From: a phage
Assembly: GCA_033580375.1 (NCBI GenBank)
Contig: GCA_033580375.1_4527.1
Strand: one strand, 5' to 3'
Length of the DNA stretch: 64,000 bases
Below are positions 45,928 through 61,918 of this stretch, piece after piece. Within the stretch, counting starts at the first letter, position 1; each line of letters begins with the position of its first letter. The position numbers and the translations under genes were made by a program. Below the pieces are notes generated by a model that was given only the letters and a program-made list of their open reading frames with translations, did not search any database and was not told where the DNA came from.

Positions 45928-46151
45928 TTAGGTTCACCTTCTTTAACGAAATCTGGGTAAGGGTAAAATCCTGAGTAAAACCCTTCACCTTTGTGATTGC
46001 TACAACCTTTGTTCGAACAGTAGCACCAATAATCAAAATCACAAGCCATTTCATCATTGCATAAAGCAAAAACTACAGGCCATTCACATCTTTCGCATTT
46101 AGCACCTGTAAGAATTTTTGTTTGACTCATAACCATTTGACCTGCATGCAA
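45924..46151 (-). CDS. small Cys-rich protein
   Basis: 75 aa with about 10 Cys (possible Zn binding). Confidence 0.4.
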   Translation of the reverse strand: MHAGQMVMSQTKILTGAKCERCEWPVVFALCNDEMACDFDYWCYCSNKGCSNHKGEGFYSGFYPYPDFVKEGEPK

Positions 46152-46339
46152 TATTCTTCGACATGCTTTTTACGACCTTTCTTATCAATAAAGGTGTATT
46201 CCATAAAGCGTCCATGATAACGACGTTCAACATCGTGAGGGGTGTTAATAGGACACTTAGTCTGACGAATTTCTTCCCATTCACGAATAATAACTGCTTT
46301 ATTCTTTGGGTCATACGGGTGAGGATAATGCACATTCAT
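46127..46339 (-). CDS. hypothetical protein
   Basis: ATG at 46339 overlaps the TGA of the macro-domain gene (ATGA). Confidence 0.4.
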   Translation of the reverse strand: MNVHYPHPYDPKNKAVIIREWEEIRQTKCPINTPHDVERRYHGRFMEYTFIDKKGRKKHVEEYCMQVKWL

Positions 46340-46833
46340 AATAATGGTTCCCAATCAACAATCACAATTTCTAGTTTAGTGGAATATGTATCAAGAATTT
46401 CTTCGATAACGTCCCAGTTTCCACCACCGATACCTGCACCAATTCTTGGCATATAAATTACAGGCTTTGTTATCTTATTCTTTCCGAATTCATTTAATTC
46501 TATTATACAATTCATTAAAGCAGAGTACTCAAAATTAGGTCCCGGCTCAAACTGTGTATAAAGATTAAAGCAATAAGCTTTATGGGTCTTAAAATATTTT
46601 TCATAAACTGAATAAGACCCGAGTTTAGACTCGTCTCCGAATTCGGTTTGAAGTTTATCAGCTTCCAGAATTTTTGGATAAGCCTTTGCTAATTGTCCTG
46701 CCACACCAGCGCCCATTGTATGAAAACAATTACACCCATGAGCAATATTGTTACCTTTAGAAAACAGGGCGACAATATCGCCCTTGATATAGTTTTTAAT
46801 CACTTGCTGCAAGTCCTCTAGTATAAGAGTCAA
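46336..46833 (-). CDS. macro-domain protein (ADP-ribose binding / hydrolase fold)
   Basis: 165 aa; AHGCNCFHTMGAGVAGQLAKAYP and MPRIGAGIGGG resemble macro-domain glycine-rich motifs. Confidence 0.55.
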   Translation of the reverse strand: MTLILEDLQQVIKNYIKGDIVALFSKGNNIAHGCNCFHTMGAGVAGQLAKAYPKILEADKLQTEFGDESKLGSYSVYEKYFKTHKAYCFNLYTQFEPGPNFEYSALMNCIIELNEFGKNKITKPVIYMPRIGAGIGGGNWDVIEEILDTYSTKLEIVIVDWEPLL

Positions 46834-48426: not shown

Positions 48427-48692
48427 TAGTATTTTTCCTCAGGTCGAAATACTGCGCGGCATGCCCACATGCTGGCTTCTTTTAGATGTTGCTTAGCATA
48501 CTTAAGAGCCTGCACTGCATCCATATCTTCTTTGGTTTGTTGCTCTGTTTCATTTTCTTTCAAGATATATGCTTCTTCAATCAGAGCATCAAACAACAAT
48601 CCAAGACGGACTTCAGCATCTTTAATAGCGTTCACTTTACCAATTTTATCATCGGTATGCGGCTTGTAGCCTTTGATGTCTTCAATCGACAT
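48426..48692 (-). CDS. hypothetical protein (start trimmed to internal ATG)
   Basis: ORF 48426..48860 overlaps 48682..48906; internal Met MSIEDIKGYK gives compact arrangement. Confidence 0.4.
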   Translation of the reverse strand: MSIEDIKGYKPHTDDKIGKVNAIKDAEVRLGLLFDALIEEAYILKENETEQQTKEDMDAVQALKYAKQHLKEASMWACRAVFRPEEKY

Positions 48693-48906
48693 AAGGAATT
48701 TCCTCATCGGTGGCAAGGTCATATTCGACCAATTGGATAGGCTCATTAATACCATATCCACGTACAGTGATATCAGTTGTCGGATAGTTTCCAGTAATAT
48801 CACCCATTCTAAATGCTTCAATGAATGATTGCTCGCCTGAGCAACTAAACCAGGCGGCAAAACATTTTAAAACATCTTCAGACCCTTCTATAATCAATTT
48901 AGCCAT
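48682..48906 (-). CDS. hypothetical protein
   Basis: 74-aa ORF starting right at the GrcA-like stop. Confidence 0.4.
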   Translation of the reverse strand: MAKLIIEGSEDVLKCFAAWFSCSGEQSFIEAFRMGDITGNYPTTDITVRGYGINEPIQLVEYDLATDEEIPYVD

Positions 48907-49268
48907 TATAGACTCTCAGTAAAGGTACGAGCGATAACGTCGCGCTGCTGTTCTGGAGTCAGAGAGTTAAAGCGAACTGCATAACCGGATACACGAATGG
49001 TCAGCTGAGGATATTTTTCCGGATGCTTAACTGCATCTTCCAGAGTTTCACGACGCAGAACGTTAACGTTCAGATGTTGACCACCTTCAATTTTAACTTT
49101 AGGTTGATGTTCAATTTCAATTTCACGGGCATTCAAACCGTAGAAAATTTCAGGGTCTACAATAGCGTCTTCTTTAAAAGTCTTAGAGACAATAATCCGG
49201 GCTTGAGTACCGTCTTCAAAATAAATAGTGCCTTTATGTGCACCTTCAAGAATTTGATATGCTTTCAT
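48906..49268 (-). CDS. autonomous glycyl-radical cofactor, GrcA (YfiD)-like
   Basis: 120 aa; C-terminal [58 protein letters not shown] matches the E. coli GrcA C-terminus as recalled, including the RVSGY glycyl-radical motif. Confidence 0.85.
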
Positions 49269-49274
49269 ATAACC

Positions 49275-49583
49275 TCAATTAGAAAATAAATTTATCCAAG
49301 TTTTTTCTTTAATCAAAAATGGGTCGGAATTAAACGCCATTAAACTTTGAGTGATTAATCCCTTAAATGGCCCATCAATAAATTCCATTTTGAAATGCGG
49401 AATACTAGTCATCAACCGTGCATTAGGAGCAGTACAAAGAACCTGCTGACCTGCGAATGGACCTTTAGTCAAACGATATCGTTTAGGTTTAAAATGGTAG
49501 ATCTCGTAATTTTCTACAAGAGCCCTTTTATTGCATACTGGGCTATTATAACAATATTCAAAAACTTCAATAGTGGTCATCAT
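49275..49583 (-). CDS. hypothetical protein (start uncertain)
   Basis: ORF 49275..49646 trimmed to internal Met to avoid overlap. Confidence 0.4.
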   Translation of the reverse strand: MMTTIEVFEYCYNSPVCNKRALVENYEIYHFKPKRYRLTKGPFAGQQVLCTAPNARLMTSIPHFKMEFIDGPFKGLITQSLMAFNSDPFLIKEKTWINLFSN

Positions 49584-50119: not shown

Positions 50120-50282
50120 ATTATTTCTCTTAAGGTTGGGGGCCATTCCATGGCGCATGAATTGTCCATTTCTGTATTTACCCATTACCGCACTTGGGCT
50201 CGACCTTATTACAGGTTGGCGGGAATCCCTCATAGAATCATGAGGTCCAGGTTGTTCCCATTTTATTTGAATGTAAATATTT

Positions 50283-50328
50283 TTGCCACGTGTTTACGAA
50301 TTATACCAAAAAAAAAACACGTGGCAAT
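50283..50328 (-). promoter_or_regulatory. sigma70-like promoter (TTGCCA-16-TGgTATAAT) inside a perfect 12-bp inverted repeat
   Basis: plus ttgccacgtgtt...aacacgtggcaa; minus strand reads TTGCCAcgtg-T10-gg-TATAAT. Confidence 0.45.
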
Positions 50329-50452
50329 TCACAGTATTCGGCGATTAAATGTTGATCAGCAAATTTAGATACTAAAGTCAAATTAATATAAGTCATTTAC
50401 CCATCCAAGTAATTATGAATATACTATCACAATTCTAGGAGAAAGTAAACTG

Positions 50453-50755
50453 TTATTTACCTTTAATTACTTTAGCTGCTTCGATAGCCGCTTGCTGAAG
50501 GTCATCCATAGACATACCGAATTTAGAAGCAAAGTTATCAATTTTCTTTTCGACAGCATTCAAAGGCTTGGCCTGTTTACCTTCATTAGCGCCAGGAAGA
50601 GCGAGAATACGCTCTTTGTCAATATAAAGGCTTACAAGTTTCTTACGGTCTTTATCGGACAAATCATGAAATGAATGGGCCTTTTTATTTATAGCGGCTT
50701 CTAATTTACCTGCACTCACTCGAGCTTCAGTAATAAATTCTTGATATGTTTTCAT
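50453..50755 (-). CDS. ipII: internal protein IPII-like (capsid-targeting N-terminus)
   Basis: 100 aa; N-terminal MKTYQEFITEA matches the T4 internal-protein targeting sequence cleaved by the prohead protease. Confidence 0.65.
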   Translation of the reverse strand: MKTYQEFITEARVSAGKLEAAINKKAHSFHDLSDKDRKKLVSLYIDKERILALPGANEGKQAKPLNAVEKKIDNFASKFGMSMDDLQQAAIEAAKVIKGK

Positions 50756-50796
50756 ATGTTTCCTTTAAATGTAAATAGGCCTATACTTAGACCTTA

Positions 50797-51375
50797 TTAA
50801 TTACCACGGGCTGCATTAGCAACGGCGTAAGCGTACTGAACATTAGCGTCTTTAAACGTACCTTTAGATGTATCTATTTCTGCCTTAAAGCCACCTTTAG
50901 CCATAACATCGGCAAATTCTTTACGGAAAGCCATTGCATCAAGACCTTTCCATGATGATTTATGCTTGGCAAATTCAAGACCAGCGTAGTTGACAGCTTT
51001 AGCTAATTTATTATCAATAACCCATTTACCGGCTTTAGGCACAAACTTCGGGCCTTTTTGTTTAGAGAACAGTTTTAAATTCCAGCGACGAAGGTCACTG
51101 TCGGCTTTAACAAAAGCTGCGTCTAAGTTACTAGCAACAACATCTTCAATATGAGCAAATTTAAGTCCGTCAACTTCAATATTTAGATCGTTACGCCAGC
51201 GTAGTCCTTCCCAAGCGAAGGCTTTAAAATCAGAAGCCTTTGTAGCTAAGTACCGTTCAATAGGAGCTGTTTTAGGGTCAAAGCCGTTTCCGCCACGATA
51301 AGTCCACTCGTCCTTATTAATGCCTTGAGCTTTTCCTGCAAAGGCCTCGGCGATAAATTCTTTATACGTTTTCAT
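50797..51375 (-). CDS. ipIII: internal protein IPIII-like
   Basis: 192 aa; N-terminal MKTYKEFIAEA. Confidence 0.65.
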   Translation of the reverse strand: MKTYKEFIAEAFAGKAQGINKDEWTYRGGNGFDPKTAPIERYLATKASDFKAFAWEGLRWRNDLNIEVDGLKFAHIEDVVASNLDAAFVKADSDLRRWNLKLFSKQKGPKFVPKAGKWVIDNKLAKAVNYAGLEFAKHKSSWKGLDAMAFRKEFADVMAKGGFKAEIDTSKGTFKDANVQYAYAVANAARGN

Positions 51376-61056: not shown

Positions 61057-61085
61057 TAAAAAGCCCCAACCTTTCGGAAGGGGCT
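61057..61085 (-). terminator. rho-independent terminator (same hairpin as 44564..44592)
   Basis: AGCCCCAACCTTTCGGAAGGGGCT with A-run on plus = U-run on minus RNA. Confidence 0.6.
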
Positions 61086-61398
61086 AAGCCTTGCGGCGAC
61101 CTTGTCGGGGTTCCACCTGCTAAGGCAAGTGTTTGTACGAAACGCCGGGATTCGAACCCGGTTATTAAGCAGTTGACGCTACTCAATATTTTTAAAAGGC
61201 CATATCTCGACCATATCCGAACGTTCCGTCAAAAACGCTACTCGGCTTACGGCAAAGATATTTCCTCGAATCGATAATTCTGTGCGCCGTTTCTGCTGTG
61301 ATGTAAGGGGATATTAACGAATCATAAAGATTTATTAAGACCAGTCCTTACTCAGGGAACATCAGTCCGACGACTTGCCGGTAGCGACCCGGCTTCTC

Positions 61399-61761: not shown

Positions 61762-61838
<77 letters not shown>

Positions 61839-61844
61839 AATATA

Positions 61845-61918
61845 TGACCCAGACCAGATTCGAACTGGTAACCTTTCCCTTATGAGGGGACTGCTACTAA
61901 CCGTTGAGCTACAGGGCC
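61845..61918 (-). tRNA. tRNA with CAU anticodon (Met or Ile2)
   Basis: hand-folded: T-arm ACCAG-TTCGAAT-CTGGT, anticodon loop CTCATAA, acceptor GGCCCTG/CTGGGTC with one mismatch; no encoded CCA. Confidence 0.55.

Follow-up and report, generated by a model that had tools for sequence, protein, structure and literature searches.

An apparent patch of recent host grcA DNA in gene vs.6 of T4-like phages

How does a gene of a virulent phage come to have one half that is nearly indistinguishable from a chromosomal gene of the host and another half that is not? This question is raised by gene vs.6 in a phage-derived stretch of 64,000 nucleotides (nt) (NCBI GenBank assembly GCA_033580375.1, contig GCA_033580375.1_4527.1), hereafter called the window, which aligns collinearly, at 96-97% identity, with RB69, a phage of the genus Mosigvirus (Tevenvirinae). 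The product of the gene, a small protein of the GrcA (YfiD) family, is very probably a spare part for pyruvate formate-lyase (PFL), in which codons 61 to about 117 were overwritten by host grcA on at least two occasions, one involving Escherichia coli and one Klebsiella. The former would have supplied the patch of Tequatrovirus and Mosigvirus, the window included, and the latter that of Jiaodavirus.

The boundary between the two parts of the gene is abrupt. When compared with E. coli grcA, the 5' part (the head) agrees at 86 of 177 nt (48.6%), whereas alignment columns 199-372 are 97.1% identical (Fisher p = 1e-27), and the tract formed by codons 61-117 reaches 97.7%. The maximum chi-square breakpoint falls at gene nt 178/179, which is window position 49090, with a value that was reached in none of 2000 permutations, and identity changes there in a single step with no gradient. 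At the protein level, residues 61-120 of Vs.6 are identical to residues 68-127 of E. coli GrcA by BLASTP, and residues 22-60 are about 36% identical. An earlier note on this DNA, made from the letters alone, had described the C-terminal 60 or so residues as identical to E. coli GrcA and the N-terminal half as divergent and AT-rich, and both descriptions hold. It had also proposed a nucleotide search against the host. When the entire 64 kb were run by megablast against complete E. coli genomes, 5,426 in number, a sole match was returned, at 48898-49090, and it was present in every genome; no other gene of the window is similar to host DNA at this level.

The four differences between the tract and E. 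coli grcA are all synonymous and all from GC to AT. An explanation of these differences as E. coli polymorphisms was rejected, as by our own count all four persist against the best matching of the 5,426 genomes (95.3% over 193 nt). Two of them share the state found in Escherichia albertii. The differences are consistent with drift toward phage composition after the transfer; a donor allele that was a variant, or that came from an Escherichia other than E. coli, is also possible. As a donor gene, pflB was considered in place of grcA and rejected, the protein tail being identical to GrcA and PFL scoring far lower. Judged from its sequence, vs.6 is a chimera rather than a freshly captured whole gene. 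Only its 3' part would be recent host DNA, because the 5' half is about 49% identical to host grcA and is orthologous across T4-like genera. Thus, where the earlier note had left the choice between recent capture and a chimera, the chimera stands and the capture of a whole gene does not.

The history of the head can be followed across a comparison set that included vs.6 of 16 phages, grcA genes from bacteria (about 85) and those 76 of 80 IMG/VR loci that could be scored. Over the 5' 180 nt, identity to the window is 99% in RB69, 89% in T4 and T2, 74% in Klebsiella phage Roth16, which is closely related to KPV15 and Nispero of Jiaodavirus, and likewise 74% in Enterobacter phage SonariX; it is 58% in Slopekvirus and Pseudotevenvirus. 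The vs.6 homologues of these genera also retain a conserved neighbourhood near regB. The head is therefore a long-established phage branch of the GrcA family that follows the relationships of the phages themselves, and it is common to phages with E. coli-type tails and phages with Klebsiella-type tails, as is the gene neighbourhood. Across ten phage genera 47 residues are invariant, and all but 5 of these lie within the C-terminal 60.

Some homologues depart from this pattern in their structure. In KPV15 the vs.6 homologue (contig L084, 401-762) is one base too short at 362 nt and has been annotated as a pair of small coding sequences, owing either to a frameshift in a pseudogene or to an error of sequencing; Klebsiella-like sequence persists in its 3' part (92.5%). 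In the Escherichia phage OES_C-2 (Tequatrovirus; contig L181, 179-535) the head has a 6-nt in-frame deletion just 5' of the junction, and the E. coli-type tract reaches the stop codon with one difference (99.5% over 185 nt). GrcA-like genes whose heads are unrelated, often beside tRNA genes, are found in T5-like Salmonella phages (L091, L095), in Krischvirus (L092) and in Aeromonas Biquartavirus (L093). Because such genes occur in several other virulent phage families, phage spare glycyl radical domains are widespread beyond the T-even group.

The tract follows the host rather than the phage. Tracts of E. coli phages are 96-98% identical to E. coli grcA, 93-94.5% to that of E. albertii, 90% to that of Salmonella and 83-85% to that of Klebsiella. 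Synonymous substitutions per synonymous site (dS) over codons 61-117, measured against E. coli, amount to 0.10 in the window, 0.02 in RB69 and 0.00 in T4 (0 of 43 synonymous sites in 57 codons). The corresponding bacterial values, 0.18 for E. albertii and 0.46 for Salmonella, follow the expected species relationships, and the direction of transfer is therefore from host to phage. The donor of the E. coli-type patch was by all appearances E. coli itself. Among 22 sites within the tract that are diagnostic between E. coli and Klebsiella, the E. coli state is present at 21 in the window and at all 22 in T4. In Roth16, by comparison, the Klebsiella state is present at 20 of the 22; this phage differs from Klebsiella grcA at 3 positions in the first 165 or so nt of the tail and possesses the Klebsiella-specific Ser codon. 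The Klebsiella reference gene was reached via a protein that NCBI names K. variicola GrcA.

The same two types are found in larger collections. Phage homologues of vs.6 number about 1,500 in all. In a collection of 50,697 phage records, 639 genomes carry E. coli grcA at 95% identity or more (4 of them at 99% or more), with matches that start at host nt 199-202, and 108 Klebsiella phage genomes carry Klebsiella grcA at 95-99%, with a start at nt 202. The host-like tails among the scorable IMG/VR loci are of E. coli and Klebsiella type only. One contig of that set, L129, shows 91% identity to grcA of Yersinia and probably derives from a bacterium or a prophage.

Other phages possess a similar tail protein with no host-like DNA. 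This set includes the Slopekvirus phages KMI9 and KpF2, Invicta, SonariX, T5-like phages, Krischvirus, Aeromonas phages and jumbo phages. For the three in which dS was computed (KMI9, Invicta and SonariX) it exceeds 1 against the hosts, and the tail protein is identical in Invicta, altered at 3 residues in KMI9 and altered at about 7 in SonariX; the other tails of this set show 67-80% nt identity to any host tail. Since nearly the same protein is encoded elsewhere with saturated dS, constraint at the nucleotide level is ruled out as the source of the tract identity. Two variable tail positions in Slopekvirus (L087/L088) and Invicta (L089) are in the host state, with synonymous sites saturated. 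More specifically, the tail of Klebsiella phage KMI9 reads LLDAVEH as in Klebsiella GrcA, and that of Cronobacter phage Invicta reads LEDAVKH as in C. sakazakii GrcA. Host-state residues in tails that have no host-like tract hint at selection for host matching; they could be remnants of an early conversion that has since decayed, or a product of convergence on the host.

The edges of the tract are revealing of how it may have been acquired. Its 5' edge, AAAATT followed by GAAGG, does not differ between E. coli-type and Klebsiella-type phages and sits where host and phage DNA cease to be alignable. The 3' endings are graded, from the host codons GAA AGC CTG to the phage codons GAG AGT CTA, and are represented by GAGAGCCTG in OES_C-2, GAGAGTCTG in contig L104, GAGAGCTTG in contig L106 and GAAAGTTTG in T4; the series also includes GAAAGCCTG and GAGAGTCTA. 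The ending GAGAGTCTA recurs in KMI9, KpF2 and Invicta, all of which have no host-like tract. This gradation favours several conversion events. The 3' end of vs.6 carries a GAGAG run that resembles a Shine-Dalgarno sequence for the downstream gene vs.5, and it may function as one.

T4 is known to break up the DNA of its host and to recombine very actively. Fragments of host DNA would recombine with vs.6 during infection, a host single strand pairing across the whole homologous region of the phage gene; branch migration would halt at heterology and replication would fix the donor strand. A 5' edge that is fixed and a 3' edge that varies could both be expected under this scheme, because the heteroduplex would extend to the edges of homology, and within the last codons the phage would need its own GAGAG sequence.

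The age of the patch can be gauged from the two genera that share it. Between the window (Mosigvirus) and T4 (Tequatrovirus) dS is 0.39 in the head and 0.10 in the tract. Heads of the Mosigvirus and Tequatrovirus types are set apart by about 20 of their 180 nt, yet contig L102, which is Mosigvirus-like, and contig L104, which is Tequatrovirus-like, both agree with E. coli grcA at 171 of 171 nt. If the tract predated the split of the genera, the probability of finding 0 changes at 43 synonymous sites would be about 0.85^43, or by our arithmetic about 9e-4, on the assumption of equal synonymous rates in head and tract. The low dS of the tract and the exact E. coli matches in both genera thus place the patch long after the two genera diverged, which leaves repeated copying from E. 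coli, or a single recent copy that was then passed between phages. In close pairs synonymous differences are more numerous in the tail than in the head (head dS 0.03 and tract dS 0.13 for the window and RB69; 0.13 and 0.43 for KMI9 and KpF2; counts are small in both cases), as might follow if the tail were reset repeatedly from different donors or if foreign codons decayed fast.

The earlier note had further pointed to a 3' half richer in guanine and cytosine (GC), and the profile is indeed not flat: the 3' 184 nt have a GC content of 46.2%, compared with 34.6% for the 5' 179 nt and a window mean of 36.9% (standard deviation 3.7). The step is nonetheless modest: within the window the 3' segment ranks at the 98.7th percentile, and about ten other segments equal or exceed it. 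From head to tail GC rises from 0.53 to 0.67 at the first codon position, from 0.28 to 0.38 at the second and from 0.22 to 0.34 at the third, so that the increase partly reflects amino-acid composition acting through positions 1 and 2. In phage homologues without host-like DNA the tail likewise lies 1-8 GC points above the head, jumbo phage A4 being the exception. Because such tails are also richer in GC, GC alone is not diagnostic, in contrast to nucleotide identity, and the profile was rejected as main evidence and given a supporting role only. Of all 184-nt segments in the window, the one richest in GC (61063-61246, 51.6%) lies close to two phage tRNA genes, Arg-tct and Met-cat (61762-61918, minus strand), and neither the segment nor the tRNA genes have a megablast match to E. 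coli.

The assignment of Vs.6 to the GrcA family is well defined. The RB69 gene has 97.8% nt identity to the window gene in conserved synteny, and the T4 protein is of equal length (120 amino acids) with 93% identity. Vs.6 matches the Pfam family PF01228 Gly_radical (2e-18; 67.3 bits against a cutoff of 22.2) and the structure of E. coli GrcA, PDB 6owr (2e-42, 147 bits), ahead of the PFL chain 1h16 (3e-26, 95 bits). The RVSGYAV motif is invariant across an alignment of 10 phage homologues. The protein is encoded by a stand-alone gene, with its own ATG and a putative ribosome-binding site, bounded by the vs.7 stop and the vs.5 start, and is not the C-terminus of a full-length enzyme. All sequence features of the GrcA family are present in it except for the score cutoff of one family model, which is taken up below.

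The function of such proteins has been studied in T4 and E. coli. T4-type genomes have a single grcA-like locus, and the protein known to biochemists as Y06I is therefore Vs.6. According to passages of PMC8683613 that cite Wagner et al. 2001, T4 Y06I is activated in vitro by the PFL-activating enzyme (PFL-AE) and restores PFL that has been cleaved by O2. YfiD and Y06I are the two spare-part proteins validated for O2-cleaved PFL (PMC8683613). The C-terminal domain of YfiD duplicates the PFL C-terminus, and its residues 1-60 are disordered and are needed for installation of the radical by PFL-AE, not for catalysis (PMC8683613). The boundary between head and tail in vs.6 coincides with this boundary between the disordered and structured domains of YfiD. 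Since Y06I has been validated and is 93% identical, the same mechanism is assigned by analogy to the Vs.6 of the window. The host activase PflA would place the radical on Gly95, and the C-terminal domain, identical to that of host GrcA, would plug into a PFL whose radical loop oxygen had cut off. Fermentative production of acetyl-CoA and formate would then be restored during infection in a host that is shut off from making its own GrcA, and the benefit to the phage would lie in fermentative energy metabolism in the microaerobic gut after host expression has ceased. The suggestion of the earlier note that such a domain might rescue either PFL or the phage anaerobic ribonucleotide reductase NrdD is thus not new in its first half, which was shown for the T4 orthologue; no evidence was found for the second.

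Several considerations weigh against overwriting of a PFL spare part by host grcA of two origins, or narrow what may be claimed for it. The GrcA equivalog model TIGR04365, which aligned to residues 18-120, scores 159.1 bits and falls below the NCBI cutoff of 170, because the N-terminal region is divergent; NCBI names the T2 orthologue GrcA despite this shortfall of the window protein. The demonstrated origins are the two host-specific ones, and many independent conversions are not proven. Counts of synonymous differences are small, and the species of the Klebsiella donor is given by an NCBI protein name, 'K. variicola', and by that name only. Queries with grcA of Salmonella and of Enterobacter cloacae returned zero phages at 95% or more, so host matching is not universal, and the E. 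coli-type patch occurs in T4-like phages that were isolated on Yersinia, Serratia and Salmonella. Rescue of PFL by the protein of the window would be a property transferred from its T4 orthologue, and recombination with a heteroduplex that reaches the edge of homology is a mechanism that we infer. The last of the distributional observations would also be expected from a single E. coli capture followed by spread from phage to phage among Tequatrovirus and Mosigvirus, with a separate Klebsiella patch. One 5' junction is found throughout the E. coli-type phages, in agreement with such a history, and flanks that are 89% identical between the genera would suffice for exchange between phages. However, the junction is also common to the Klebsiella-type phages, so that a shared junction need not mean a shared event, and the graded 3' endings are easier to reconcile with several tract endpoints. 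A single capture with later spread is accordingly regarded as rather unlikely, and it is a variant of the overwriting described here, not a contradiction of it. The opposite extension, in which vs.6 evolves in concert with host grcA, its radical-domain half being rewritten to the limits of homology by homeologous gene conversion from degraded host DNA when a T-even lineage takes up a new enterobacterial host, and being reset again thereafter, is offered tentatively, as an idea with a somewhat better prospect than a single capture that nevertheless may well prove too strong.

The remaining alternatives depart further from overwriting by host grcA. Recent capture of a whole grcA followed by very fast divergence of the 5' half could appeal to the homology of the head with the GrcA N-terminus over the region aligned by TIGR04365, and to the disorder of the YfiD N-terminus, which could allow it to evolve fast. 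Yet the heads are conserved across genera and hosts at 74-89% (Roth16 and SonariX at the lower value, T4 at the higher) and stand at about 49% to the host heads, phages of both tract types have one head lineage in one neighbourhood, and identity falls in one step; this explanation is hardly credible. A similarly slight chance attaches to an ancient acquisition whose tail was frozen at the nucleotide level by selection on codon usage, messenger RNA structure or a regulatory element. The protein is under extreme constraint, as the 47 invariant residues in 10 phage genera attest, and host grcA is highly expressed with biased codons, but Invicta, KMI9 and SonariX exceed a dS of 1 from every host tested, Klebsiella phages exhibit Klebsiella-specific synonymous states, and E. 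coli is more distant from E. albertii (dS 0.18) than from T4 (dS 0.00). That Vs.6 might serve the phage NrdD, or titrate the host activase, instead of repairing PFL is improbable, if a little less so. The argument for it comes from jumbo phage A4, where the grcA-like gene sits among anaerobic reductase genes. Against it, the tail of Vs.6 is identical to GrcA and PFL-like, with no ribonucleotide reductase among 33 PDB chains at E <= 0.001; T4 Y06I reconstitutes cleaved PFL; and in the near-identical RB69 region the neighbours of vs.6 are vs.8, vs.7, vs.5, vs.4 and regB, with no adjoining nrdD or nrdG. The A4 locus (Escherichia jumbo phage, Asteriusvirus; L094, 527-889) is flanked by one gene annotated as anaerobic ribonucleoside-triphosphate reductase and another annotated as 'anaerobic NTP reductase', and a DUF4326 gene also falls within this interval; the arrangement suggests an anaerobic-metabolism module; its tail has about 69% nt identity to E. 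coli grcA.

The features of the locus are collected in Table 1. According to the RB69 annotation mapped to the window, vs.6 lies in a leftward block of the order vs.8-vs.7-vs.6-vs.5-vs.4-regB-vs.1-vs-tk.4-tk. In the list of open reading frames (ORFs) its start codon is ATG, and its stop overlaps the ATG of vs.5 (TAATG), the latter gene being apparently translationally coupled to vs.6. A scan for promoters and terminators around vs.6 gave promoters at about the shuffle expectation and terminators modestly above it.

Table 1. Features of the vs.6 locus, in window coordinates (nt, nucleotides; aa, amino acids)
Feature	Position	Strand	Basis or remark
vs.6 coding sequence, 120 aa plus stop	48906..49268	-	ORF list; orthologue of T4 Vs.6/Y06I
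Apparent phage-lineage head, gene nt 1-178, residues 1-60	49091..49268	-	48.6% nt identity to E. coli grcA
Apparent host-derived tract, gene nt 181-351, codons 61-117	48918..49088	-	4/171 nt differ from E. coli grcA
Last three sense codons and stop, GAG AGT CTA TAA	48906..48917	-	phage-type; host has GAA AGC CTG TAA
RVSGYAV motif, residues 92-98	48975..48995	-	translation; aligns to the GrcA/PFL radical glycine region
Gly95 codon, predicted radical site	48984-48986	-	within RVSGYAV
GAGG, putative ribosome-binding site	49273..49276	-	4 nt 5' of the vs.6 ATG; overlaps the vs.7 stop
vs.5, 74 aa, downstream gene	48682..48906	-	ORF; collinear with RB69 vs.5 annotation
vs.7, upstream gene	49275..49583	-	ORF; placed from RB69 annotation; start approximate

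Elsewhere in the window, two adjacent ORFs (50453-50755 and 50797-51375, both on the minus strand) have nearly the same N-termini, MKTYQEFITEA and MKTYKEFIAEA, which resemble the sequence that targets internal proteins of T4 to the capsid. Both ORFs lie in the only stretch that is not collinear with RB69 (about 50220-51346) and may constitute a variable internal-protein cassette. In addition, about 410 bp at 45935-46346, between the blocks that align with tk.4 and tk.2, are present in the window and absent from RB69.

The vs.6 locus provides a concrete and experimentally tractable case of gene conversion from a host to a virulent phage, in the best-studied group of lytic phages, in which transfer rates, tract lengths and dependence on uvsX, 46/47, denA and denB are measurable. 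The host-specific patch suggests that the radical domain must closely match the PFL or PflA of the host, and the tract could be used to trace which hosts a T-even genome has recently had. If vs.6 does evolve in concert with host grcA, the tract would be a natural, datable record of host use and an assay for gene flow from chromosome to lytic phage in T4.

The gene and its function on PFL are already known from T4 Vs.6/Y06I and E. coli GrcA; what is new is the host-specific, recent conversion patch, the mosaic itself being of a known type. No description of host-phage recombination at vs.6/grcA was found in the searchable literature, which does not cover the T4 genome review or Wagner 2001, so a prior mention is possible. 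T4 Vs.6 is alike in its 120 amino acids, in the vs.8-vs.7-vs.6-vs.5 block near regB, in the mosaic of head and tail and in the E. coli-type tract, and is different at 20 nt of the head and in the last three codons. The T4 tract has 0 synonymous changes and one non-synonymous change (R73H), whereas that of the window has its 4 synonymous changes from GC to AT. E. coli GrcA/YfiD (6owr) shares the C-terminal 60 residues, the two-part layout and the form of a small stand-alone protein, but the N-terminal region of the window protein is 7 residues shorter and about 36% identical; E. coli grcA adjoins ung on the chromosome, whereas vs.6 is part of a lytic-phage operon with overlapping start and stop codons.

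A close parallel is psbA of cyanophages, along with other auxiliary metabolic genes, in which patchy GC content has been attributed to intragenic recombination between host and phage, with drift to phage composition (PMC3900582, PMC3037559). Both psbA and vs.6 are host-derived metabolic genes of T4-like phages in which GC-richer, host-like patches are set into a phage-type gene. Unlike psbA, vs.6 involves an enteric host and the T4 group itself, and its patch of about 171 nt has a 5' edge fixed at a protein-domain boundary. The patch also reaches up to 100% identity to a living host species, and it exists in related phages in two versions, each contributed by a different host genus.

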